From positions 96,001 through 160,000 of IMG/VR virus record IMGVR_UViG_3300025770_000006: a DNA stretch of 64,000 nucleotides. One strand, 5' to 3'. The position numbers and the translations under genes are program-made. The notes beneath the pieces are model-generated. The model was not told the DNA's origin and made no database searches. It saw only the letters and a list, made by a program, of their open reading frames with translations. Shown here piece after piece: positions 51,437 to 63,670 of the stretch (the stretch's first letter is position 1; every line of letters starts with the position of its first letter). Source of the DNA: a virus.

Positions 51437-53449
51437 ATGTTATTTGAAACAACATTCAACGCTGAGAGTTTCTACAAGAAGTTTACACCAATCTTAAAAG
51501 AGATCTCTGTACCAGAAAACTTAGTGCCGTTTGCAGAGTGCTTATCCGAGTATCACGAACTAGACTTAGATATTTCCGTTGAGCCTAAAGTATTTGTAGA
51601 TCCACAAGATGGTGGCGACCAAAAAAAAGCCATCGTTCTTTTATCTGGAGGGATTGATAGTGCTTGGTGTCTCTTATGGGCTTTAGAACAAGGTCTGAAT
51701 CCACAACCTTTATTTGTGGATGGGCTGAACGCTTCTCAAAACTCTCGTGAGCGTAAAGCTGTCCAAGTCTTATGTGATAAGCTAGACCTGCCCCTCATCA
51801 CATATAAACACCCAACCCATCTCAAAAAGCTACATAAAGATCCGTCTAATATATTCAAGATACCAGAGAGCTTTGTGAAACTACAGTATGCTCTGATGGC
51901 AATCAAAGATGACATACGAAAAGAGGGCATAGCAGGGGTCATTGTCACCTGCCCTACTAACCAACCCGAATACATTGACCCTACTGCACCTAAGAAAGAA
52001 AATGGGGAACCGCTGACATGGTTTCAAGACTCAGAAGAGTCTATGGAAACTTTCTTACCGTTCCTCTCCGATTATATTGGGTGGGGTTTTAAAGGATACT
52101 ACCCTGTCACCATGAAAGAGCAGAAGATAAAAGCTCTAATGGACAAAGGGATCTTTGAAGATACCTGCTCGTGCGTATGCAATCCTATGTTCTTTTCGGG
52201 TCATCGTAAGAGATCAAAACCCAAGTATTCCAATATGTGCGGCGTGTGTTGGAAGTGCAAAGAAAACCTAGCTTTCATCAGTAAACTTAACCGAGATGAT
52301 GAAGTCGTTGAAGATGAGATGCCAGAAGAGCCTCAAATGAAACCTTGGCAAAAAGGATATGAGTTAGATTATCTTAAAAGCGTAGAGGGTCAGTTCAACG
52401 CTTTTAATGACCTGTGTATTTCCCCATTCCTACAGATGAAAAAAAATAAAGTCGCAGACCACTTACACGATGGCACTTTAATCCTTAAAGACGGATTTAG
52501 GTGCATCCTTAAAAAGTCTAAAACTAGAACGAGTATAAAAGTGTACTCGAATAGGGATCACACCCTCGCTTATAAAGATGTAGGCGAGTTCGCTATGGGT
52601 AAGTTAGTCATTGATGATGTGAGTGAGTTTAAAGAATACTGCGATAAGATTGATCAGAACATTTGGGTCATCAGCTTTGACTCGATTGAGAAAGATCTTC
52701 TCTCATGCGGGTTTGTTAAGCTAGGATATAAATACACCTCCTTTGGTGATGATCTCACTGTGTTCCTTTTGCAAAAGCAAATCGACTTTTTCGGTACGAA
52801 CACAAATAGACTAATCTTTAATGACCCTTTAGAAAGAGCTACCTGTGTGAAACTCGACTCCAACTTTGAGGTTGAGTCCATCGCAGATAAGTTAGCCGCT
52901 TACGAATTTAAGAAGCACTACTCCAACTACAATAGTGGTGGGTGGTCAGCTATCAGTCTAAGAGGGTTTAGCGATGACCCCTCCTTCATTATCAAACCAG
53001 AAGAGATGAATGATAAATGGACGGAGCAAAACTCAGAGACAGATTTCTATCTGAGAGACACCGAAGCGTATGAATATTTTAGCGAGGTAAGGGAGATCAT
53101 AAACACAGTCGCCCCAAACCAAAAGATCGAGAGGGTGAGAATAATGAAGCTCTCTGAAGGATCTGAGATTAAAAAGCATACTGATCTAGTAGATCCAGAT
53201 TGTGGTGTCGGGGTAGGAGAAACAGCAAGGTTTCATGTGCCGATTAAAACAAAAGATGCTGTCTTTGAGGTATGGGGACAAAATGGTAAAGAGTCATTCT
53301 CTTTAGAGAAGGGTTCTCTATGGTATCTCGACACAAGAAAACCACACCGAGTCATTAACCCAACCAGCGATAGATACCATCTTGTTTTTGATGTCTTTGT
53401 TGATCAAGAAATAAGAGAACTTATCAAGAGATGCTTAAATGTTCTTTGA
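51437..53449 (+). CDS. fusion of a QueC-like PP-loop ATPase, a central (GNAT-like?) domain and an Asp/Asn beta-hydroxylase-type 2OG-Fe(II) dioxygenase, 670 aa
   Basis: VLLSGGIDS, CSC...CGVCWKC; HTD...RFHVP...PHRVIN...RYHLVFD. Confidence 0.8.
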   Translation: MLFETTFNAESFYKKFTPILKEISVPENLVPFAECLSEYHELDLDISVEPKVFVDPQDGGDQKKAIVLLSGGIDSAWCLLWALEQGLNPQPLFVDGLNASQNSRERKAVQVLCDKLDLPLITYKHPTHLKKLHKDPSNIFKIPESFVKLQYALMAIKDDIRKEGIAGVIVTCPTNQPEYIDPTAPKKENGEPLTWFQDSEESMETFLPFLSDYIGWGFKGYYPVTMKEQKIKALMDKGIFEDTCSCVCNPMFFSGHRKRSKPKYSNMCGVCWKCKENLAFISKLNRDDEVVEDEMPEEPQMKPWQKGYELDYLKSVEGQFNAFNDLCISPFLQMKKNKVADHLHDGTLILKDGFRCILKKSKTRTSIKVYSNRDHTLAYKDVGEFAMGKLVIDDVSEFKEYCDKIDQNIWVISFDSIEKDLLSCGFVKLGYKYTSFGDDLTVFLLQKQIDFFGTNTNRLIFNDPLERATCVKLDSNFEVESIADKLAAYEFKKHYSNYNSGGWSAISLRGFSDDPSFIIKPEEMNDKWTEQNSETDFYLRDTEAYEYFSEVREIINTVAPNQKIERVRIMKLSEGSEIKKHTDLVDPDCGVGVGETARFHVPIKTKDAVFEVWGQNGKESFSLEKGSLWYLDTRKPHRVINPTSDRYHLVFDVFVDQEIRELIKRCLNVL

Positions 53450-54614
53450 ATATAAGACTGAACTTAACTCACTAGACGACATTGAATATATTAAAGATGG
53501 CTATCTTCACATACGCCCTAACGAATGGAGTATGCTTCGTGAGAAATATACTAAGGAAGATATCAAAGACCATATCGCACCCATCGTTGAGTCTTTACCT
53601 TATCCTTACTCTGAGTACACAACGGAGTCTGCAAAGAAGGACTTCATAAGCCTCAAAGCGAAAAAAGAGCCATTCGTATTTGATGAATGGGTAGCACCAC
53701 GCCAAGCTACTCCCCTAGAGACTACTTATCTAGGTAAGCACATTTACCTCAACAGCTATTACAAAGGTAAAGAGGTGTCTAACCTGTTCACTCAAGAACA
53801 GAGGATGAAATGTAGCTATCGCACACAAGGTAACTCACCTTATGACGAATGGGTCAACGCTAGTAAGAATAACTCGTTCCTACGATGCTTCTTCGGTATC
53901 TGTGAAAATGACATTTATGAGAGGGGTGGGGTCAATAAACAAACCCTTAGAAGAGCATTGAAGATGCACACATATATGGCTAGTCAGTTCAAAGCTGAGT
54001 CTGCTAAAGCTCTCTATGATCTGTTCCAATCTAAAAGCGTCTTAGATTTCTCAGCAGGTTGGGGTGATAGGTTAGTAGGCTTCCTAGCTTCAAATGCCGA
54101 CTCCTATATTGGGATTGATCCTAATACTAAGCTCCATGAACCATATCAGCAAATCGTCAACCTCTGTGATACAGGTAAAGAGGTTAGGTTTATTTGCTCA
54201 CCTGCTGAAAATGCTGACCTCTCTGATGTCAAAGTAGACTTTATCTTTACGAGCCCACCATACTTTGACATCGAAAGGTACAGTACAGAGTCCACACAAT
54301 CATGGAAGCGATACCCAGACCTTAAGGATTGGGTCAATGATTTCTTACTCGCTACCCTCACCAAGTGCTGGTCTGCACTTAAAGATGGTGGCCGGATAGC
54401 CATCAACATTGCGGATAAAAAAGGAGAGGACATCTGCACTCCTATGCTTGAACACATGAAGAATTTAGGGGCTACATATGAAGGGGTGATAGGATATCGA
54501 ATGTCTGAGCGTGGTGGTCAGAAAACAGATTGCCCTACTTGTGAGCCGATCTTTATTTGGAGTAAGGGTTTAACACCCGAACCTAAATGGAATTATAATG
54601 AGTATTTTTTTTGA
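53439..54614 (+). CDS. DNA amino-methyltransferase, paralog 4
   Basis: DFSAGWGDR, FTSPPYF. Confidence 0.88.
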   Translation: MFFEYKTELNSLDDIEYIKDGYLHIRPNEWSMLREKYTKEDIKDHIAPIVESLPYPYSEYTTESAKKDFISLKAKKEPFVFDEWVAPRQATPLETTYLGKHIYLNSYYKGKEVSNLFTQEQRMKCSYRTQGNSPYDEWVNASKNNSFLRCFFGICENDIYERGGVNKQTLRRALKMHTYMASQFKAESAKALYDLFQSKSVLDFSAGWGDRLVGFLASNADSYIGIDPNTKLHEPYQQIVNLCDTGKEVRFICSPAENADLSDVKVDFIFTSPPYFDIERYSTESTQSWKRYPDLKDWVNDFLLATLTKCWSALKDGGRIAINIADKKGEDICTPMLEHMKNLGATYEGVIGYRMSERGGQKTDCPTCEPIFIWSKGLTPEPKWNYNEYFF

Positions 54615-54623
54615 AGAGGTGTT

Positions 54624-55751
54624 ATGCAGTTATTTAACTACAAAAAAATAGGAGGTCAGACCCTTAAATCAAAAGTGGTCTTAGATCCTGTCGTTGAAAA
54701 AGTAGCAAGTGAGTCCGACTATAAGTTCAATGGTGAAACTTCATTTGTTGTACCTGAGTTTGATGTTCCTCCCGACTTCACATTAGGAGTGATATATGGG
54801 CCGAGTGGTTCGGGTAAGTCTACCCTCTTAAAAGAATTCGGAGAAGAAGCTGTTGGAGCATGGGATCAATCTTTAGCTATAGCTTCTCAAGTAGACCCAA
54901 ACCTACTCTTGAGACTCGGATTATCGTCTATCCCCTCTCTTTGCAGACCATATCATGTCTTAAGCACAGGTGAGAAACATAGAGCTGATATAGCTAAAAA
55001 CCTAACAAATGGATGTGTCATAGATGAGTTCACTTCTGTGTGTAATCGAGACTTCGCTCAATCAATCTCTGTGGGACTGAGGAAAGTCATAGATCATTAC
55101 GGATATAAAAATGTGGTCATCGCTACCTGCCACGAAGATGTCATAAATTGGTTAGAACCAGATTGGGTTGCTAACACATTAACGAGGCGGCTCGTAGAAG
55201 GGAGGTCGGAAAGGCGATCTTCAACTTTTAGAGTTCTACCTTGCTCAGTCGAAGTCTGGTCAATCTTCAGCGACCATCATTATCTGAGTGGAGATCTCAA
55301 CAAGGGTGCTCATTGTTGGCTACTCATCAACGAAAATAATACAATCTGTGGCTTCATGTCTGCGATTGCATTACCAGGAGGGAATGTACGCAATGCTTGG
55401 AGAACACATCGAACAGTAATCTTACCCGACTTTCAAGGTATGGGATTAGGGTCAAGACTGTCTAATGCTATAGCTAAGATGTACTACGATAAAGGATGTC
55501 GATTCTTCGGTAAAACTGCACACCCAAAGCTCGGTGAACATCGAAACAACTCTGAACTATGGAAACCCACAAGGAATAATAGAGTCAGCAACAAGAGTAT
55601 GTCCTATGAAAAAATGAAGGACTCCAAATACTCTAAAAAGTTTCTGCAAAAGCACAACAATAGAGTATGTTATGCACATGAATATATTGGCGATGGAACT
55701 ATGAACTTGAAAGGTCAAGAGCCAAAAAAAGAGCATACTCCATTCTTTTGA
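54624..55751 (+). CDS. ABC-type ATPase fused to a GNAT acetyltransferase
   Basis: GPSGSGKST, LSTGE signature, IDEFTS; RTVILPDFQGMGLG acetyl-CoA motif. Confidence 0.85.
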   Translation: MQLFNYKKIGGQTLKSKVVLDPVVEKVASESDYKFNGETSFVVPEFDVPPDFTLGVIYGPSGSGKSTLLKEFGEEAVGAWDQSLAIASQVDPNLLLRLGLSSIPSLCRPYHVLSTGEKHRADIAKNLTNGCVIDEFTSVCNRDFAQSISVGLRKVIDHYGYKNVVIATCHEDVINWLEPDWVANTLTRRLVEGRSERRSSTFRVLPCSVEVWSIFSDHHYLSGDLNKGAHCWLLINENNTICGFMSAIALPGGNVRNAWRTHRTVILPDFQGMGLGSRLSNAIAKMYYDKGCRFFGKTAHPKLGEHRNNSELWKPTRNNRVSNKSMSYEKMKDSKYSKKFLQKHNNRVCYAHEYIGDGTMNLKGQEPKKEHTPFF

Positions 55752-55781
55752 TTTCTTATAACCATAGTGAGGAGTGAGACT

Positions 55782-56129
55782 ATGAGTTTAGAAGAACTAC
55801 TAAAAAGAAATCGGGTGCAACTGCAAAAGAAGCAGGGCGACTATCTGTACTTCATCCAGTCAAGCAAAACAGGGATGATAAAGATAGGTCGATCTAAACA
55901 CCCTAAGAAGAGACTCAAACAACTTCAAACAGGGAACTCAAATACGCTCCGTATTATCGCCTCATTTGAAGGTTTAGGGTGGAGGGAACCCCACCTACAC
56001 GAAGACCTCAAAAAGTGGCGTATACGCCAAAATGGAGAGTGGTTTCACCATGATTGTGTCGGGTCGATCCCTACTGATCTATATGAGATGATCGAATGGG
56101 GAGCGTTTGATGACTGGTGGAAACCTTAA
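55782..56129 (+). CDS. GIY-YIG superfamily (T5orf172/MUG113-like) protein
   Basis: YLYFIQ...IKIGRS..PKKRLKQLQTGN...GEWF. Confidence 0.8.
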   Translation: MSLEELLKRNRVQLQKKQGDYLYFIQSSKTGMIKIGRSKHPKKRLKQLQTGNSNTLRIIASFEGLGWREPHLHEDLKKWRIRQNGEWFHHDCVGSIPTDLYEMIEWGAFDDWWKP

Positions 56130-56146
56130 CGAGTAAAAAGAAACTA

Positions 56147-56293
56147 TTAACAATGATCCTCTTCTATTAAAGGTTGCGAATCTATCTTTCTCAACATCTC
56201 CTTTGGGTCAAGCTCATCAACAGAAGAATTATTCTGCGAGATTGACCCACAAGAGAAAAGAAAAAAGAGGAATAAAGAAAAAAGAAGTCTCAT
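56147..56293 (-). CDS. small lipoprotein, 48 aa (not in ORF track)
   Basis: hand translation MRLLFSLFLFFLFSCGSISQNNSSVDELDPKEMLRKIDSQPLIEEDHC; late motif at 56336-56347. Confidence 0.55.
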   Translation of the reverse strand: MRLLFSLFLFFLFSCGSISQNNSSVDELDPKEMLRKIDSQPLIEEDHC

Positions 56294-56334
56294 GTGTTGT
56301 ACCCTAACTTATTATCAATATCTCTAAAAAAGGG

Positions 56335-56383
56335 TATAAAGAAACTACAAATCCTCGTCATATTCCTGTTGAGCGAGGATTAA
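56335..56383. repeat. short copy of the late motif plus the 3' end of the actin-like gene (matches 56843-56895 except for a 4-bp deletion)
   Basis: TATAAAGAAACTACAAAT...CCTCGTCATATTCCTGTTGAGCGAGGATTAA. Confidence 0.85.
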
Positions 56384-56796
56384 GCCTCTTTTACTTCAAT
56401 CTCTTTATGGTCATAGATAACTTGGAAAGTCATCTTATGAACATAATTTTCAACCCCAAAAAGTTGAAGTTTTCTGGGTCTATCCATCGTACACTTAACC
56501 TCAACTATTAGATCCCCAGCAAGATTAATAGATCGATACCCAAGAACTTTAATGTCTAAGTCGTCTGGTGTGTCTTCGGGAATATCAAAATCAAAAAAAC
56601 CCTCGATGCCCAAGAAAAAGTCATATAAAGCGTCTTCTACCCAGTTTGATCTAACTCTTGACCCCGATAGTTTGCTTAAATCTTTTGCTATCGTGGTGGA
56701 TAGGCTCTTGAGGGTTTCTTCCCGACTTGATTGTTTTTCAAGTCTAGCGATTCTTGACTCAAGGTTACGGATAATTTCACTAGCTGATCTTCTCAT
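56380..56796 (-). CDS. MRRSASE-leader protein 4 (138 aa)
   Basis: MRRSASEIIRNLESRIARLEKQSS; late motif at 56844-56855. Confidence 0.85.
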   Translation of the reverse strand: MRRSASEIIRNLESRIARLEKQSSREETLKSLSTTIAKDLSKLSGSRVRSNWVEDALYDFFLGIEGFFDFDIPEDTPDDLDIKVLGYRSINLAGDLIVEVKCTMDRPRKLQLFGVENYVHKMTFQVIYDHKEIEVKEA

Positions 56797-56859
56797 GGTT
56801 TACTCCAGTGGTTTAAGGTTAATGAGATCACTTATGAGAAGATATAAAGAAACTACAAA

Positions 56860-56995
56860 TCAATCCTCGTCATATTCCTGTTGAGCGAGGATTAACATAC
56901 CCTTAGAGACAGCGTGAAGCGGGTCAGAAGCATGACGAACCTCTGAGATCTCGATAGGGGAACGCTTTTTCTTAGTCTCAAAGACCTCCCTAAAG
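56860..56995 (-). pseudogene. 136-bp duplicated 3' end of the actin-like gene (copy of 57470-57605)
   Basis: 6 mismatches, 5 of them synonymous third positions in HASDPLHA. Confidence 0.85.
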
Positions 56996-57005
56996 TTATT
57001 ATTTT

Positions 57006-57395
57006 TTAACCAACAATGACAGTGTTAGGTCGATCAACCATGTTTGTTTGATACCTGTCCATTAACTCCGCATCAGTATCGAGGATGGCTTTGTTAATTT
57101 CTACTTCAACGCAAAAATGCACTTTGCTTGACGAGATTGTCTTTACATTAGAGACAATACCCATTTGCCGAAGGTTTACCATATCAGACATGAAAGAGGA
57201 AACTGCTGATTTTAGAGTAGATGGATAAAGGTGCGTGAAGCAATACTCATTAGCATGGGAGTTAAAATTCATTAAAATAACACATTCATCTCCGTCAATT
57301 ATTCTGGTATTGTATGCCGCAGTTTTACTTTTACCTTCAAGTCGTGCGATCCTAGACTCAAGATTTCTGATTACTTCACTAGCTGATCTTTTCAT
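57006..57395 (-). CDS. MRRSASE-leader protein 5 (129 aa)
   Basis: start moved to MKRSASEVIRNLESRIARLEGKSKTA; late motif at 57444-57455. Confidence 0.85.
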   Translation of the reverse strand: MKRSASEVIRNLESRIARLEGKSKTAAYNTRIIDGDECVILMNFNSHANEYCFTHLYPSTLKSAVSSFMSDMVNLRQMGIVSNVKTISSSKVHFCVEVEINKAILDTDAELMDRYQTNMVDRPNTVIVG

Positions 57396-57469
57396 TATAG
57401 TTCTCCATTTTGTTAAGGTTAAAGAGATCACTTAAGACCAATTATAAATAAACTATTAACCTTGACAGC

Positions 57470-58471
57470 TCAATCCTCGTCATATTCCTGTTGAGCGAGG
57501 ATTAACATACCCTTAGAGACAGCATGGAGAGGGTCTGACGCATGACGAACCTCTGAGATCTCGATAGGGAAACGCTTTTTCTTAGTCTCAAAGACCTCCC
57601 TAAAGAAGTCCATGAATCCACCTGCGAGACTTGTACCACCACCCACTACGATTGGAATGGGTTTGTTAAGGGTGAGGTGTCCACCTTTCATCACAAACTG
57701 CTGTGCGATGTTATCTAAAGCGTGTTCAATAAGAGCCTTATAATAGAACGAGATCGCTTCTTCTTCTCTATTCTTAGGTGCTTTAAGGTCAATGCCCTTC
57801 TCTTTTACCGCACACATTTTAGAAGCTGTTGCACCTACTGATCGAGCCGCTCCTTGATCAATCCAATCACCACCACGAGCAACGGAGAAGGATAACCCCT
57901 CAATGGTGCTGATAGCGAGAGCGATATTGGTCATACCAGAACCGAAACTAATCCCGACACCAGAAAAACCTTCCTTTGCAGTCTCTGCGAAGACGATAGC
58001 CATAGCTTCGTTGGCGGGGTGTGCAGTATATCCACATTCTTGAACGATGCGAGTGAATACACCCTTATGATAAACAACATCCATATTAGCGTCCACAGGA
58101 GCCGCAGGGATTGAGAAATAACAATGCTCTCCCTCATGGCTAGGGTCACCGAGAACATCTTTGACCATATGTCCGAGAACGGTAAGGGAGTCGATCTCAT
58201 CAGCAGAGATAAGACCTGCTTTAAGGGGTCTACGACCTTCTCTACCGAACATATTAGCTACTTCCATAGCTTCATCCCCAAGTACAAGTAGATTGTCGTC
58301 AGCTTCGATGTATGACACCGAGCCGAGTTTGAGCATCTTTTTAGCCGAAGATGGGAGATCAATAAAGAGGTCACGCATCCTTCTTAGAGTTACTTCATTT
58401 TTCTTAGCACCACTCATGCGAGCAGACACCAAGTTCATAGTTCCAATGTCAAGTCCTACACCTTTACTCAT
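57470..58471 (-). CDS. actin-like ATPase (MreB/ParM/FtsA superfamily)
   Basis: phosphate-1 GLDIGT, connect-1 NEAMA, phosphate-2 ISFGSGMT, adenosine VGGGTS. Confidence 0.85.
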   Translation of the reverse strand: MSKGVGLDIGTMNLVSARMSGAKKNEVTLRRMRDLFIDLPSSAKKMLKLGSVSYIEADDNLLVLGDEAMEVANMFGREGRRPLKAGLISADEIDSLTVLGHMVKDVLGDPSHEGEHCYFSIPAAPVDANMDVVYHKGVFTRIVQECGYTAHPANEAMAIVFAETAKEGFSGVGISFGSGMTNIALAISTIEGLSFSVARGGDWIDQGAARSVGATASKMCAVKEKGIDLKAPKNREEEAISFYYKALIEHALDNIAQQFVMKGGHLTLNKPIPIVVGGGTSLAGGFMDFFREVFETKKKRFPIEISEVRHASDPLHAVSKGMLILAQQEYDED

Positions 58472-59136
58472 TGTTTATTTGCCTTTCTTAATGCTTTCAA
58501 AGCAGAGAGAGCATCCGAGAGTTCTTCAGAACCTTCGGATTTTGTTTCATTCGCCAGAGACTCTGAGGAGGCTATGGTCTTATTAGAGATAATGTTAGAT
58601 GGGATAAAGGTCAATCCTTCATCGGCTGTTGTGTTCATATTACCCATAGGTTGATTGCTTTGAGCGTTATTGTTCACGACAACCTGTTGAGTGGGCATCT
58701 GTTTAGCGACAGCTTCAGCGATAGCTTCGGGAGAGATCATTGTCCCTAACTGTTGGATAAGGATATTAGCAAGAGCGTTCATGTCTAATTGTGGTTGCTC
58801 TGTTTGTTTCTCTACAATCACTTCCTTTTCTACTATCACTTCCTTTTCGACTATCACTTCCTTTTCGACTATCTTCTCAACCACTACAGGTCTTACTTCT
58901 TTAACTACCTTTGACTCATGAATGATTTTAAATCTGTTATTGCTGTTTACCCCTAGTCGAGAGGGAGATGGATTGCCTTTAACCTTGAGAGCGATCAATC
59001 CTGTGTTGACTAAAGTCTTTAGTTCTTGGTTTGAGTCATATTGGGATTTAGTGCAATCAAAGGTCTGCCCTTGTTTGAACTTGAGTCGAAGACTCTTAAT
59101 CTCTATATCTTTAAGGCACTGTGCTACATAAATCAT
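58468..59136 (-). CDS. hypothetical protein with (EKEVIV)n repeats, 222 aa
   Basis: ATGA-coupled to both neighbours. Confidence 0.75.
   Translation of the reverse strand: MIYVAQCLKDIEIKSLRLKFKQGQTFDCTKSQYDSNQELKTLVNTGLIALKVKGNPSPSRLGVNSNNRFKIIHESKVVKEVRPVVVEKIVEKEVIVEKEVIVEKEVIVEKQTEQPQLDMNALANILIQQLGTMISPEAIAEAVAKQMPTQQVVVNNNAQSNQPMGNMNTTADEGLTFIPSNIISNKTIASSESLANETKSEGSEELSDALSALKALRKANKQ
58809..58875 (-). repeat. 18-bp tandem repeat encoding EKEVIV
   Basis: TC(G/T)ACTATCACTTCCTTT units. Confidence 0.8.
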
Positions 59137-59705
59137 TGTTCGCCCTTGCTCATACTTTTAGTAAGAAAGAAAGTAGCCTTTCGTATAGCTTTTATTCTAC
59201 CCTTCTCAATCCCTTGCTCGATGAAGTTAAACTTATAAACTGATGGGTGTATCCATTTGTTTTCTGTTCTAAGAGGAAGATTTCTGAAAACTACTTCACC
59301 TGTTTTTGTCTTAATAGGTACGACCTTCCTTTCCATGTTAGAGTTACGAGTCAACCACCTCATTTCATAAGGATCTTTGCGTTCAAGATACTTTTTGACC
59401 CATTGCCACTCTGACTTGATCTTGATCGCCCCCCCTTTAGATATCTCATAATAAAAGGAGTCTAGGAAATCTTTGGTGCGAGGAATACCACTGCCGAGTC
59501 CTGATGCTCTTTTCGCTTCCTCTTTGATTGCCTTTATTATCTCATCCCCGAAGATCTCTATGACCTTTTTAGAGATGTCTTTGCCTCTTAGGTCAACATT
59601 CTGGAACTGATTTTTACGCACCTTATAAGTACGGAGATCCCAAGGTCTATTTGGATCTCTGTTCTTTGGTGGGTTTCTTCGTGCTCGTCTAGGGTCAAAC
59701 TTCAT
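59133..59705 (-). CDS. basic protein, possible neck/tail-completion protein, 190 aa
   Basis: WIHP...FIEQG C-terminal block; GGAGG RBS; late motif at 59736-59747. Confidence 0.55.
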   Translation of the reverse strand: MKFDPRRARRNPPKNRDPNRPWDLRTYKVRKNQFQNVDLRGKDISKKVIEIFGDEIIKAIKEEAKRASGLGSGIPRTKDFLDSFYYEISKGGAIKIKSEWQWVKKYLERKDPYEMRWLTRNSNMERKVVPIKTKTGEVVFRNLPLRTENKWIHPSVYKFNFIEQGIEKGRIKAIRKATFFLTKSMSKGEQ

Positions 59706-59836
59706 ATCTACACCTCCTCCTCCTGTAGTGTGGATATAAACAACTTACAATAGTCTATTTATATTTGGTTTTTTGATAAAAACCCCTCCCTTATTAAAAG
59801 TAAGGACGGACAGATGTTCACTTTAAGGATCAAAGC

Positions 59837-60130
59837 ATGAGTGGAGATAGTAAACCCCCCGAAGAAATAGACCCTATAGAAACAGAGATTAATCTCATCA
59901 ATGAACTTATAGGAGATAATATAATTATAGTACTCCATCAAAATGGTATGACTATTATGATGGATGAGGACATAGAATATAGGGCTGAAGAGCAACTGAA
60001 GATGTTTAGTCGTTTATATGTAGCCGCTAACCCCAGCTTTGTGTTGAGACTCTTTTTGATGCTTGAGGTGGGGATGCTTCTCGCATGGGACTACCTAGAA
60101 GATTCCTTCAATAAATATATTAAAAGATAA
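59837..60130 (+). CDS. hypothetical protein, 97 aa (paralog of 130..366)
   Basis: NPSFVLRLFLMLE; TAGTCTATTTAT motif at 59751-59762. Confidence 0.7.
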   Translation: MSGDSKPPEEIDPIETEINLINELIGDNIIIVLHQNGMTIMMDEDIEYRAEEQLKMFSRLYVAANPSFVLRLFLMLEVGMLLAWDYLEDSFNKYIKR

Positions 60131-60191
60131 TCTTATCCCCTCCTAAATTGTATAAGGTAAGTGTTCACATTAACCACAATGGAGGTCGCAC

Positions 60192-60656
60192 ATGAGCGAT
60201 AAATGGAAAGCAGGACCTGAAGTCCAAGAGCAGATTAATCATCTCATCGGAAACGCACACCCACACTTGGCTGACATCATGAATGACATTGTAGTCATCT
60301 TTAAAGAGAAGTGTTCACGCAAGGGTGGTCGCCCTATTCTCGGTAAGACCTCAAAAGCACCAGGGATCTTGTCTGTCCTTGGGGATCACGCATACGAGTT
60401 TGTCATTGAGCTTGGGGCAGACTGTTGGAACAACCTTAAAGAGAATGAGCGTATGGCTCTACTTGACCATCTTCTCTGCTTCATCGGAGGTGAAGAAGAC
60501 GAGAAATCGGGTGAGATGAAGTATTATCTCTCGACTCCCGATGTCTTTTATTTCTCTGAGGAAGTTGCTCGTAATGGGAGTTGGCGTGAGGAGATCCTAC
60601 CCGATGGTGTACCCGAAGAGGGTTCAGACGCACCTTTGTTAGACCCTATCGGTTAA
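60192..60656 (+). CDS. phage metallopeptidase-like protein with a degenerate HExxH motif
   Basis: ALLDHLLCF in place of ALxDHELxH; GGAGG RBS. Confidence 0.65.
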   Translation: MSDKWKAGPEVQEQINHLIGNAHPHLADIMNDIVVIFKEKCSRKGGRPILGKTSKAPGILSVLGDHAYEFVIELGADCWNNLKENERMALLDHLLCFIGGEEDEKSGEMKYYLSTPDVFYFSEEVARNGSWREEILPDGVPEEGSDAPLLDPIG

Positions 60657-61231
60657 AGGTCTAACCACCTTTTGAGTTCATTGCGATAGTTCTCACCCTT
60701 GTTGATGTAGTGGCTAACGATTTCATTAGACATGAACCTCATGTGGCATCCGATTGTCCAACGAAGATCACCCTTTCGATCAATCGAAGCATTTTCAAGT
60801 GTCAACATGAAATGGGGATCTTCAGACCCATCAAGAAGTGTTCCTGACTGTAGCACTCGCCGATAATCCCCACCGCTCAGTTTAAATGCCTTTCGTCTAG
60901 GGTCAAACTTTACATACTTTGGGAAAGTCTTATCAAAGGATTCTGATACGGTACCATCAGTATCGAGCTTATGTAGTGATGAAAGAATCTTCATAATATC
61001 TACAACTTCGTCATACAACTCGATATACAACTCTTGGGTAGGGGTGGTTTCTTCTTCTTGTCCAAAGTAATCATCTTTAAAAATCTTTGAGTCATCTTCA
61101 TAGTATGATCTCTCTGCGTCATACATATTAGAGTCAAAATAACCTTGTGGGTATCCTGCTGTCCTTTGGTTTTCAAGACGAGCGATTCTTGACTCAAGGT
61201 TTCTGATTACTTCTGATGCTGATCTTCTCAT
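60653..61231 (-). CDS. MRRSASE-leader protein 6 (192 aa)
   Basis: MRRSASEVIRNLESRIARLENQRTA; TAGTTTACCTAT motif at 61286-61297. Confidence 0.85.
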   Translation of the reverse strand: MRRSASEVIRNLESRIARLENQRTAGYPQGYFDSNMYDAERSYYEDDSKIFKDDYFGQEEETTPTQELYIELYDEVVDIMKILSSLHKLDTDGTVSESFDKTFPKYVKFDPRRKAFKLSGGDYRRVLQSGTLLDGSEDPHFMLTLENASIDRKGDLRWTIGCHMRFMSNEIVSHYINKGENYRNELKRWLDL

Positions 61232-61855: not shown

Positions 61856-62539
61856 ATGAGACTAGTTTGCATTTCAGACACACACAACCAGCACGATAAA
61901 CTTGAGTTGCCCGATGGGGATGTTCTAATCCACGCAGGAGATTGGACAGGTACAGGTACGCAAAAGCAAGTTATCTCATTTATAAGATGGTTTGCGAATC
62001 AGCCACATAAACATAAAGTCTTGATTGCAGGAAATCATGAGGTGACTCTTGACTCACCTTTTTATCGTACTAACTGGCCTAGATTCCACCCTCAACAACC
62101 CCACAGTTCACATGATATCTCTAACTATGTGTTGAGAGAAGAGGGCATCCACTACCTTGAGGATACAGAGGTGGTTATAGAGGGTGTTAAGTTTTACGGT
62201 AGTCCATGTCAGCCCTCTTTTGGTGGTTGGGCTTTTAATGTAGACAGGGGTTTACCGATACGATCTGTATGGGGGAATATACCCGATGACACTGATGTCT
62301 TGATAACTCATGGGCCTCCACATGGATATGGAGATAAGTTAGCTTGTGGAGAGCGTGTGGGCTGTAAAGATTTACTTGATGAGGTAACGACAAGAATCAA
62401 GCCCAAAGTCCATATTTACGGACATATACATGAAGGGTATGGCACATACGACTTAGAGGGTATAAAGCTAATTAACCCTTCTAGTTGTAATGAGCATTAT
62501 AAGATTACAAATAAGCCTATCATATATGACTTAGAATAA
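61856..62539 (+). CDS. calcineurin-like metallophosphoesterase
   Basis: SDTH, HAGD, GNHE, THGPP, GHIHE. Confidence 0.9.
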   Translation: MRLVCISDTHNQHDKLELPDGDVLIHAGDWTGTGTQKQVISFIRWFANQPHKHKVLIAGNHEVTLDSPFYRTNWPRFHPQQPHSSHDISNYVLREEGIHYLEDTEVVIEGVKFYGSPCQPSFGGWAFNVDRGLPIRSVWGNIPDDTDVLITHGPPHGYGDKLACGERVGCKDLLDEVTTRIKPKVHIYGHIHEGYGTYDLEGIKLINPSSCNEHYKITNKPIIYDLE

Positions 62540-62653
62540 CTTGTTTTCAAGTCGTGCTATTCTTGATTCGAGTCTGAAGCTGATCTTTTCATAATGGTTT
62601 CTCCATTTGGTTAAGGTTAAAGAGATCACTTAAGATCAAGTATAAATAAACTA
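62540..62653 (-). pseudogene. empty MRRSASE cassette: promoter, RBS and frameshifted leader, no cargo
   Basis: ATG AAA AGA TCA GCT TCA GA|CTC GAA TCA AGA ATA GCA CGA CTT GAA AAC; upstream region nearly identical to that of 57006..57395. Confidence 0.8.
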
Positions 62654-62659
62654 TCAAAC

Positions 62660-63670
62660 CTAGTATGGCTCTCTGAAATCTAGGTTTTCTCCCTCAAGGA
62701 GATGAGCAATAAAATTAAGCTCCTTCTTACTTAGACCTCTAAAAGTAAGAGTTGTTTCTAGGTGTCCAGACTCATTTAAGACAGCTTCTGTGAAATGATC
62801 CTCTACACCCCAAGCATATCCAGCATAAACGGAAGAACTATCTTGCTCAAGTACTATTGAAGAGGGTTTGACCTCGACAGACATTAAACCCTCTATTTCA
62901 CCAAACTCACTCTTAACTGCTTCCTCAATGTCTTCCCCCCTCAACTGACCCTTATCTTCCCAAGTAGCGATTATATCCCTATCATCCATAAGTTTGTGGG
63001 TGAGTGTGTAGGTAGTATTTATTCGAGCTGTCTTGTTTTCAAGTCGAGCGACTCTTGATTCAAGACTGTTAATTATTTCACTAGCTGATCTTCTCATCCC
63101 TGCGATCTCCATATCTTTGAGTATTCTATTTAGAACTTTCTTGACTCTACGATCTCTAGTCAAAGAGAGGGCTTTTTCAAAGTCTCCGCTCCATAGTGCG
63201 TCATATTTTTCAGACATTTCATCTCTAAACTCTGGGTCATAGATATAAAGCATTGGTTCATGCTTTTCGATAGCCTCGATTAAGAGATGTTTTACGGACG
63301 AGTGTCTTTTCATGATGTATTCACTTTGTTTGCTTGTGGATGGAAAAGGGGTTGGGTTATATTTAGCCGCCATATCAACCATCTCACGATCTTCATGTGT
63401 GAGTCTTTGTCGATACCAGTCAGAACCCATAGTGATAAGTGCATAATTAGTACGGTCTAAAGATCTCTCCATTTTAGAGAGGTGCTTAGGGATGGCTTCA
63501 AAGTTATCCCCACAACGCTTGTATACTTCTTCTGCGAGTTGCGGGTGTTCTTTGATAGCTTCTACCATCTGGTTGACATGACTACGAACAATGTGAGCTT
63601 CTACACGAGAGGCTGAGACACCTTCAGATAAAATAGACCAAGATGCTTGGCTTGAAGATTTCTTTTTCAT
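62660..63670 (-). CDS. 336-aa multi-module protein with an internal MRRSASE leader (copy 7)
   Basis: start moved to MKKKSS; internal MKRHSS (63313) and MRRSASEIINSLESRVARLENKTA (63097); motif TAGTTCTTCTAT at 63706-63717. Confidence 0.8.
   Translation of the reverse strand: MKKKSSSQASWSILSEGVSASRVEAHIVRSHVNQMVEAIKEHPQLAEEVYKRCGDNFEAIPKHLSKMERSLDRTNYALITMGSDWYRQRLTHEDREMVDMAAKYNPTPFPSTSKQSEYIMKRHSSVKHLLIEAIEKHEPMLYIYDPEFRDEMSEKYDALWSGDFEKALSLTRDRRVKKVLNRILKDMEIAGMRRSASEIINSLESRVARLENKTARINTTYTLTHKLMDDRDIIATWEDKGQLRGEDIEEAVKSEFGEIEGLMSVEVKPSSIVLEQDSSSVYAGYAWGVEDHFTEAVLNESGHLETTLTFRGLSKKELNFIAHLLEGENLDFREPY

Follow-up and report, generated by a model that had tools for sequence, protein, structure and literature searches.

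Exchange of small accessory genes at repeated sequences was first described from T4-type phages, with their PeSL cassettes and mini-circles (Arbiol et al. 2010, PMC2839356; Comeau et al. 2014, PMC4122927), the latter detected by inverse PCR in infected cells or virions (PMC2839356). The internal-protein loci of T-even phages, with their capsid-targeting sequence, are a further precedent, and shuffling within a palette of internal-protein genes has been proposed for these phages (Repoila et al. 1994, as cited in PMC12373910, PMC3012670 and PMC4122927).

The locus described here lies in a window of 64,000 nt, the whole stretch of DNA that was analysed (positions 96,001 to 160,000 of IMG/VR virus record IMGVR_UViG_3300025770_000006), and belongs to an uncultured lineage of marine giant phages with genomes of at least roughly 300 kb. 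Leader-bearing genes are stacked behind an actin-like gene, and copies of the 3′ end of that gene recur between them. As in PeSL cassettes, small accessory ORFans in a hyperplastic region are bounded by a repeated composite of stem-loop and promoter, here a promoter-like motif; as in T-even internal proteins, the encoded small proteins are unrelated and have only a short N-terminal signal in common. The repeated actin ends are likely to be scars left as genes were added step by step in a hyperplastic slot immediately downstream of the actin-like gene.

Results

The array is read on the minus strand. Its conserved anchor is an actin-like gene of the Volactin family (57470-58471, 333 aa), the final 136 nt of which (c1, 57470-57605) are the source of the repeats. 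A stem-loop with a 10-bp stem and a 16-nt loop overlaps the actin stop codon (57470-57505). Intergenic unit 1 (57396-57469) contains the promoter-like motif TAGTTTATTTAT (57444-57455), a conserved 5′ UTR and a GGAGA ribosome site, behind which the ATG of leader gene 5 opens a frame of 129 aa (57006-57395). A 10-nt A-rich joint (56996-57005), taken to be an illegitimate junction, separates the gene 5 stop from c2, a 136-nt non-coding copy of the actin 3′ end that includes the stem-loop (56860-56995). Intergenic unit 2 (56797-56859), with the promoter-like motif TAGTTTCTTTAT (56844-56855), a UTR and a ribosome site, leads into leader gene 4 (56380-56796, 138 aa), whose TAA stop lies inside the second copy, c3 (56335-56383). 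This copy reproduces the actin stem-loop exactly over 34 nt (56350-56383) and continues, with 4 nt deleted, into a promoter-like motif (56336-56347). A small leaderless lipoprotein gene (56147-56293), which encodes 48 aa including a signal peptide and L-F-S-C lipobox and has no homolog in the fetched relative loci, is the last in the array. Past it lies an orphan promoter-like motif (56135-56146; one mismatch to the motif) with no gene behind, and the array is closed by a convergent plus-strand T5orf172 gene (55767-56129; GIY-YIG-related; PF10544, 2.6e-9), possibly a mobile endonuclease. The preliminary description had already listed the actin end, the promoters, leader genes 5 and 4, both copies and the lipoprotein gene in this order on the minus strand, with coordinates for the actin end and the two copies, all of which proved correct, and the array is confirmed as real in the window.

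The anchor protein matches the Pfam Volactin family (PF25216) over residues 5-326 of 333 with an E value of 5e-75 and 253 bits (cut-off 35). Relatives of the gene, with 56-99% amino acid identity, were found at 18 IMG/VR loci, and precomputed assignments place the actin-like genes of L056, L061, L062 and L068 in the same family. The GenBank phage collection gave a single weak match of 66%, which lies within the actin gene of an uncultured, unannotated phage of 485 kb. The stem-loop at the actin end has a predicted RNA fold of -15.5 kcal/mol (z -2.0), and that of c3 one of -18.4 kcal/mol (z -3.8). Across nine distinct relatives, 95% of cells are paired at the actin end in a register-specific manner, with compensatory changes in two pairs as well as wobble. 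The 34-mer of the stem-loop occurs three times in the window, always within the array, and found no match in 100 shuffles; a complete 375-kb relative has the stem-loop once, only at its actin end. With three local copies in the window and one in the complete relative, a dispersed repeat of the PeSL type was rejected. The terminator scan did not call the stem-loop, which has a 16-nt loop and an interrupted T-run, and an Rfam search of 55900-57800 returned no match.

The copies c2 and c1 are identical at 130 of 136 positions, and the repeat search extends the pair to 141 nt. Five of the differences (0-based indices 66, 69, 75, 78 and 81 in the repeat) fall on third positions of the A, S, P, L and H codons of HASDPLHA and are synonymous, while the sixth, at index 35, affects a second codon position (TTC>TCC) and changes F to S; alignment thus bears out the six differences first reported, five of them synonymous and clustered in HASDPLHA. 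If differences were random over codon positions, at least five of six on third positions would arise with p of about 0.018 (our own calculation). All five clustered synonymous sites of c2 have the same state in the functional actin end of L056, and among functional alleles in the set the 75G state is carried by L056 alone. The remaining c2 variants are also found in functional alleles, and F>S alone is private to the window lineage. The gene 4 ortholog of L056, at 65% identity, lies directly behind its actin gene. The proposal that c2 derives from the functional allele of a related phage is supported by both features of L056, and the shared states suggest that c2 is a defunct fragment of an L056-type actin allele that was once functional.

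Two further readings of c2 were rejected. Its translation is contradicted by the lack of a start codon and by a frame that does not match that of gene 5 in the window; the c2 of L052 is in frame behind a single stop, solely through one extra A. A clean microhomology origin of its left joint fails in that a 7-nt match between the promoter-like motif and the actin gene misses the exact joint observed. The c2 sequences of the window and L052 agree at 132 of 136 positions (97%), against 86-88% in their surroundings. This high conservation is attributed to a shared mosaic tract that also spans the 3′ part of gene 5; selection acting on c2 could be an alternative cause. The shorter copy, originally given as about 33 bp plus a promoter at 56335-56383, is likewise confirmed, with the exact 34-mer noted above, and its likeness to c2 runs on, across the 4-nt deletion, into the promoter-like motif as far as 56335. 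It appears to have been trimmed to the stem-loop, and may have been kept as an RNA 3′-end or terminator element for gene 4.

The number and content of cassettes behind the actin gene had been predicted to vary among relatives, and states from zero to several cassettes were found. L055 is cassette-free, with only a decayed promoter/leader remnant, and L001-L003 have a single cassette that carries the resident cargo, termed X here. In L056-L058 the order is gene 4, a short c3-like scar and X; in L061/L062 it is gene 5 and X, and L061 has this pair without any actin-end copy, an addition without a scar. L052 has gene 5, the 136-nt scar c2 and X, while the window and L068 have gene 5, c2, gene 4, c3 and the lipoprotein gene. 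X accordingly stands first behind the actin gene in L001-L003 and second in L052, L056-L058 and L061. The gene 5/c2 joint recurs in L052 (with one extra A) and the left joint of gene 4/c3 in L056, L057, L058, L064 and L065. Two tandem gene 4 paralogs, with c3 behind each, are present in L064, and the L056 copy of c3 has lost most of its loop. Similarity between the window and L001-L003 extends from the actin gene across the intergenic unit into the leader codons and ends at the cargo. Against L052, tracts of 75-85% and 97-100% identity alternate, with a collapse just past leader 4. L056 is the exact product expected of a crossover between c1 and c2, and could equally represent the donor of c2 and gene 4. 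The same architecture is found at other anchors: in L034 and its kin the end of a LAGLIDADG gene is present three times, and in L025 and its kin about 30 nt from the end of a 458-aa gene have been copied; the anchor-end copies of L034 and L025 have no evident stem. An ABC/GNAT gene downstream of the array is absent from the records of three relatives, and the region beyond c3 is for this reason regarded as specific to the window lineage.

Genes 4 and 5 are alike only in an N-terminal leader of 20-23 residues (20 in gene 5), and their cargos are otherwise dissimilar. The leader is carried by seven minus-strand genes of the window and by dozens in relatives, all otherwise unrelated proteins. Leader genes of the window and of many relatives are preceded by a conserved promoter-like motif and 5′ UTR; this promoter/leader unit is dispersed in 7-8 copies, which have the conserved motif TAGTTTNTTTAT in common. 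The sigma-70 scan gave one match (10/12), in unit 1 only, and the count of promoter-like sites was not above that of shuffles; the motif is a putative promoter. Intergenic unit 2 is almost identical to the unit behind the functional actin gene of L061. Orthologs of gene 5 are found in L052 (83%) and, directly behind the actin gene, in L061 (71%), and those of gene 4 include P0002 (81%), P0003 (75%) and P0004 (65%). IMG/VR scans with cargo 4 and cargo 5 gave matches that were almost all leader-only. Look-ups of the exact gene 4 and gene 5 proteins of the window found no record, and a one-residue variant, P0013, led to L068.

No leader protein, those of genes 4 and 5 included, has a Pfam or PHROG match, and such searches were also empty for most large ORFs of the window. 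The AF2 model of gene 5 (pLDDT 83) comprises an N-terminal helix, a low-confidence linker and a compact alpha/beta domain; that of gene 4 has a pLDDT of 75. The leader is modelled as a separate, predicted amphipathic helix followed by a low-confidence or disordered linker. Foldseek searches of the PDB with both cargo models returned nothing at E <= 0.001, and only weak NTF2/VirB8-like and miscellaneous rows above it. The models suggest small ORFan domains as cargo, each preceded by a detachable N-terminal helix, which by analogy with T4 internal proteins is probably a tag for capsid loading.

Discussion

The intermediate states and the allele match support the earlier suggestion that promoter-leader-cargo cassettes accrete by recombination at a conserved gene end. 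The ancestral state would have consisted of the actin gene, a promoter-like unit and a single leader-tagged gene that carried cargo X. Extra slots would then have been opened by two rare illegitimate joins. In one, which gave c3, the end of gene 4 would have been fused to actin sequence 34 nt ahead of a stop codon; in the other, which gave c2, a site 10 nt past gene 5 would have been fused to actin sequence 136 nt ahead of a stop codon. Each join could have come about by unequal crossover between co-infecting relatives whose slots held different cargo, or through the insertion of an excised circle. Once in direct repeat, the actin end with its stem-loop, together with the promoter-like motif, 5′ UTR and leader codons would provide about 270 nt of portable homology, with which general homologous recombination could move, swap and remove whole cassettes among relatives with no need for a dedicated recombinase; mosaic arrays would be the outcome of such exchange, and the direct repeats would also permit precise loss of a cassette. 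Homing-endonuclease-like genes adjoin three arrays and may stimulate the exchange. The claim that no integrase is visible in the window holds as far as it was tested, in that Pfam and PHROGs searches found no recombinase or integrase family among the window ORFs scanned.

Two explanations would deny the array any foreign contribution or any reality. That an assembler stitched two co-occurring strains with different post-actin cargo into a false tandem array is hardly credible. The window is probably from a metagenome assembly, with repeats 96-100% identical, contig L053 ends right at the stem-loop, and both the linkage of c2 to gene 4 and variation within the population are read from assembled contigs. 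However, L068, a k141 contig from an independent assembly, is colinear with window positions 52880-60296 at 99.946% identity (4 mismatches in 7417 nt) and gap-free, covering c1, gene 5, c2, gene 4 and c3 and continuing to the T5orf172 and methylase genes, and a second contig, of 48.9 kb, has the same gene 4 variant. The gene 5/c2 and gene 4/c3 joints are present in other samples, and an assembler would be unable to invent such unique joints; even a false link between c2 and gene 4 would leave c2 and c3 real in their own strains. Internal duplication of the actin end, promoter and leader gene within one genome, with subsequent divergence and no foreign DNA, is a quite unlikely origin. Divergence is uneven, with identities of 96% in the actin end, about 79% in the intergenic part and about 83% in the leader and with unrelated cargo, cargos 4 and 5 being dissimilar beyond the leader. 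Orthologs of each cargo occur as the sole insert directly behind a functional actin gene in other phages (L056; L061/L062), and c2 has the functional allele of L056, unlike that of the window itself. These points weigh against the tandem appearance of the 610- and 512-nt periods, the two gene 4 paralogs of L064, each with its c3, and the general knowledge that tandem duplication through unequal sister exchange is a frequent event in phages.

Three other explanations concern the forces that maintain or move the repeats. It is possible, and compatible with accretion, that the copies, chiefly c3, were kept as regulatory parts in the manner of PeSL, each combining a transcript-ending or stabilising stem-loop with the promoter of the next gene. 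c3 consists of precisely the stem-loop and the promoter-like motif and matches c1 at 34 of 34 positions, where gene 4 is only 65-81% identical to its orthologs, and it lies behind gene 4 in five different downstream contexts; the stem at the actin end is conserved through wobble and compensatory changes, fold z-scores range from -2.0 to -3.8, and PeSL stem-loops are proven terminators (PMC2839356). Yet the terminator features (16-nt loop, interrupted T-run, no call by the scan) are weak, the L056 copy has lost most of the loop, the anchor-end copies of L034 and L025 lack an evident stem, and no role is evident for the 100 nt upstream of the stem in c2, a copy that also carries F>S. It is rather unlikely that free-standing homing endonucleases drive the exchange by cutting nuclease-free relatives, with repair dragging cassettes along and imprecise repair duplicating gene ends. 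The nuclease genes in question are the T5orf172 gene that closes the window array, absent from the fetched relatives (present in L068), the LAGLIDADG endonuclease whose end was copied three times in L034 (PF03161, 1e-19) and a GIY-YIG gene behind the post-actin cassette of L008/L009, and transfer of DNA adjoining homing endonucleases is known in T4-like phages (PMC4122927). No such gene was found, though, in the sequenced parts of the arrays of L052, L056-L058, L061 and L001-L003, a cleavage site is not known, and the adjacency may be coincidence, as plastic regions collect mobile genes. Integron-like site-specific recombination, with the stem-loop as an attC-like site and a recombinase encoded elsewhere in the genome, is very improbable. 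A fixed crossover point would be expected of such an enzyme, and since the joints differ (136 or 34 nt ahead of the actin stop, and scarless in L061), a site-specific recombinase is disfavoured. Each cassette has its own promoter-like unit, and no hairpin is common to the anchor-end copies at other genes. Against this stand the imperfect hairpin at cassette ends and a weak tyrosine-recombinase-like ORF (20-25 bits) in the complete relatives G001 and G002, which reaches the cut-off in G001 only, and there only with neighbouring in-frame matches; in each genome the actin locus is more than 70 kb distant from this ORF, of which the window has no homolog.

Stepwise accretion by general recombination thus remains the preferred reading, and the array is a clear natural example of a known route by which phages gain and swap accessory genes. 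With intermediates, both joints and a donor-type allele from natural populations, it is a rare stepwise record of a giant phage enlarging its accessory gene set. It extends shuffling at a repeated regulatory sequence, first described from T4-type coliphages, to very distant uncultured marine giant phages, and indicates that part of a core gene can come to serve as a recombining repeat. The cassettes pair a shared N-terminal tag with unrelated ORFan domains, which makes the post-actin slot a good hunting ground for phage proteins possibly injected into the host; once such a phage is cultured, the slot would also be a natural entry point for foreign genes. It is tempting to go further and see in the actin-end stem-loop, promoter-like motif and leader codons a dedicated, self-propagating exchange module, whose excised circles would pass between co-infecting giant phages, perhaps helped by neighbouring homing endonucleases, and re-insert behind any module-bearing anchor. 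We regard this as unlikely; if true, it would amount to a recombinase-free, integron-like trade in capsid-loaded proteins, possibly directed against host defence, across the marine phage population.

Comparison with known systems

The nearest parallel is with PeSL cassettes, in which insertions, deletions and replacements between close relatives are bounded by repeats, as they are here. General homologous recombination suffices for exchange there and would suffice here, and by analogy the direct repeats of the array would permit excision and re-insertion of circles. In contrast to PeSL, where the stem-loop is intergenic and dispersed, the stem-loop of this locus lies inside the coding 3′ end of the actin-like gene, and the dispersed unit is instead the promoter-like motif with 5′ UTR and leader codons. 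PeSL units have a strong sigma-70 early promoter, whereas the motif here has no clear sigma-70 consensus; c2 moreover holds 100 nt of anchor coding sequence beyond the stem, and the phages are uncultured marine giants most of whose genes lack a PHROG match.

Like the array, T-even internal-protein loci are polymorphic between close relatives. The leader proteins have no sequence similarity to internal proteins or their tag in Pfam and PHROGs searches, and the leader, a predicted amphipathic helix of about 20-24 residues, differs from the T4 internal-protein tag of about 10 residues. To our knowledge, duplicated anchor-gene ends have not been described for the T-even locus. The resemblance to integrons, in stacked, exchangeable single-gene cassettes by a fixed anchor and in hairpin-forming cassette ends, is one of outcome only: the array has no adjacent integrase and no fixed crossover point, and each cassette brings its own promoter-like unit. 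Morons are self-contained transcription units inserted between existing phage genes, and illegitimate recombination in phage genomes can leave short duplicated gene ends as scars at its joints. The array is similar in that a unit was added between genes and a duplicated end marks the joint, and differs in presenting a full series of intermediates, a scar with a donor-type allele, and scars that would themselves serve as further homology.

Results

Read along the minus strand, the actin-like gene (57470-58471), a full-length match to Pfam Volactin (E 5e-75), is followed by a 74-nt intergenic unit (57396-57469), gene 5 (57006-57395, 129 aa), a 10-nt A-rich joint (56996-57005), and a copy of the last 136 nt of the actin gene (c2, 56860-56995). 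A second intergenic unit of 63 nt (56797-56859) then leads to gene 4 (56380-56796, 138 aa), an exact 34-nt copy of the actin end (c3, 56350-56383) followed by a promoter-like motif, and a lipoprotein gene (56147-56293, 48 aa). All elements of the array of repeated actin ends and leader genes claimed in the preliminary description were found in this order, as were the six differences between c2 and the functional actin end (c1, 57470-57605): one F>S change and five clustered synonymous third positions, which fall inside 16 nt. The sole similarity between genes 4 and 5 is a 20-23-residue N-terminal leader that is also carried by five further minus-strand genes of the window. Just upstream of the actin gene, three 18-nt tandem repeats (58808-58873) encode EKEVIV units in a 222-aa protein.

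Sequence colinearity with L068, a 15.4-kb k141 contig from another assembly, and recurrence of the joints in other loci indicate that the array is not an assembly artefact. L068, to which a gene 4 variant (P0013, one residue different) pointed, aligns with window positions 52880-60296 with four mismatches and no gap, spanning c1, gene 5, c2, gene 4, and c3 and continuing into the T5orf172 and methylase genes. The gene 5/c2 joint was found again in L052 (86% identical overall), and the gene 4/c3 joint in L056, L057, L058, L064, and L065.

The actin gene is present in 18 IMG/VR loci. As had been predicted, cassette content after this gene is variable, the slot holding zero, one, two, or more cassettes in differing orders. 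In L001-L003, whose actins are 97-99% identical to that of the window at the amino acid level, the slot holds one leader gene each, all of a single family (cargo X); nucleotide similarity to the window extends from the actin gene across the intergenic unit into the leader codons and ends exactly at the cargo start. L055 has an actin end identical to that of L052 and no cassette, a decayed promoter/leader remnant alone preceding the next conserved gene. In L052 itself, an ortholog of gene 5 (83%) is followed by the A-rich joint seen in the window, by c2 with 4 of 136 sites changed relative to the window copy, and by a leader-cargo X fusion. The gene 5 ortholog of L061 and L062 (71%) lies immediately behind actin and is followed by leader and X, with no actin-end copy in either array. 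L056-L058 have a gene 4 ortholog (65%) in that position, then a remnant resembling c3, joined on its left as in the window, then leader and X. In L065, gene 4 (81%) and an intact c3 precede the conserved gene usually located behind the array, and L064 has two gene 4 paralogs in tandem with c3 behind each; gene 4 is always accompanied by c3 in the loci compared.

The remnant in L055 (2660-2798) comprises a degenerate promoter-like motif and the disrupted start of a leader, and resembles an "empty cassette" at window positions 62540-62653. Gene content beyond c3 also differs, as seen when window positions 52880-56129 are set against L001-L003 and L061: the window lineage continues with the lipoprotein gene, a gene for T5orf172, and a cluster of DNA-modification genes, the relatives with a conserved series of small genes encoding 91-aa, zinc-ribbon, and 242-aa proteins. 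The array is therefore located at a larger synteny break.

The window contains the 34-mer three times, against no occurrence in 100 shuffles. It forms a stem-loop whose 10-bp stem takes in the actin stop codon. In a comparison of nine distinct actin ends, pairing holds for 95% of stem cells, two stem pairs are altered on both sides, and pairing is lost once the register is slid. The stem-loop with its stop codon lies at 57470-57505 in the window and is also present at the actin ends of L004, L005, and L007. In relatives down to 92% protein identity the stem is retained by wobble pairing and compensatory substitutions (A-U to G-U to G-C; C-G to U-A), which suggests a selected RNA element closing the three-gene actin operon. 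The element is not dispersed; it is single-copy in a complete 375-kb relative. In the array, c3 may be retained as an RNA 3'-end element.

The promoter-like motif of the array is TAGTTTNTTTAT. Between it and the ribosome site, the 5' UTR has the core GTGATCTCTTTAACC (window 57396-57443, 56797-56843, and 62581-62641; also L020, L025, L033, and L034). This UTR is near-invariant in phages from many samples, its conservation exceeding that of the leader codons, and may act as a regulatory RNA or bind a protein; an Rfam search of window positions 55900-57800 gave no match for it. Predicted structures show the cargos as ORFan alpha/beta domains with a separate helix and disordered linker in front, and Foldseek searches against the PDB returned no fold match for the cargo 4 and cargo 5 models. 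By analogy with T4 internal proteins, the leader may be a capsid-loading signal (PMC3012670, PMC12373910). A putative phage metallopeptidase gene (PF18894, 60192-60656), back to back with a leader gene (60653-61231) and also close to the actin locus in L056 and L068, is a candidate for leader processing.

Gene-end copying, judging from these assemblies, is a general habit of these phages. Four assemblies (L034 and relatives) contain a LAGLIDADG endonuclease gene (303 aa; 762-1673 in L034) whose 3' end recurs at two positions downstream (near 2078-2157 and 2713-2780), with the promoter-like motif and then a gene behind each copy; one of these cassettes encodes a secreted protein without a leader. 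Three others (L025 and relatives) have, ahead of a promoter and truncated leader, a copy of the final ~30 nt of a gene for a 458-aa protein. Homing-endonuclease-like genes adjoin three arrays, and such neighbors may increase the rate of exchange. In L008 (7787-8104) and L009 (6809-7126), which have 86% actin identity, a GIY-YIG endonuclease gene lies directly behind the post-actin leader cassette.

Discussion

The origin of c2 in a functional allele of a related phage, proposed in the preliminary description together with the prediction of a relative with a matching actin end, is borne out by L056. Its functional actin end has all five clustered c2 states, and is the only one among the functional alleles compared to have 75G. 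Since the remaining variants of both c2 copies (window and L052) are also present in working actin genes, c2 is taken as a piece of an actin allele that was formerly functional, of the type preceding gene 4; only the F>S change is private to the window lineage. L056 may represent either the donor or the outcome of a crossover between c1 and c2 in which gene 5 was lost.

Between the window and L052, c2 is 97% identical. The identity profile of these two loci alternates between tracts of 75-85% and tracts of 97-100%, dropping off just past leader 4, and one high-identity tract of ~270 nt takes in both c2 and the 3' portion of gene 5. This shared mosaic tract accounts for the 97% identity of non-coding c2 without selection, which may nonetheless contribute. 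The two intergenic units of the window differ in type, unit 1 belonging to the L001 type and unit 2 to the L002/L003/L061 type. On the reverse strand of L052, an extra A brings c2 into the frame of gene 5, past a single TAA stop, and read-through of that stop would add the actin C-terminus to the gene 5 product; c2 of the window is out of frame with gene 5. The frame shift in L052 is probably neutral.

The array would have formed in two stages: two rare illegitimate joins, then homologous recombination of the ordinary kind between co-infecting relatives. The portable homology would be a ~270-nt block running from the actin end through the promoter-like motif and UTR into the leader codons, and each cassette would have been added either by unequal crossover or when an excised circle inserted in the Campbell manner. 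The scars differ in length (136 nt, 34 nt, or none), and a scan of window ORFs found no recombinase gene, in agreement with the earlier remark that no integrase is visible. Together with the patchy identity, these observations fit illegitimate joins followed by homologous recombination and argue against a site-specific system; an integron was rejected on the same three grounds. In the complete relatives G001 (62279-62695, L066) and G002 (85081-85515, L067), a 454-491-aa ORF distant from the actin locus has a weak tyrosine-recombinase match (20-25 bits), and no homolog of it was found in the window.

As proposed here, the array works like modular shuffling mediated by promoter-early stem-loop (PeSL) cassettes of T4-type phages (PMC2839356, PMC4122927), and like the internal-protein locus of T-even phages. 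Unlike PeSL cassettes, it is without a clear sigma-70 promoter and its stem-loop is coding and local, not dispersed; the array is notable for how complete its natural series of states is.
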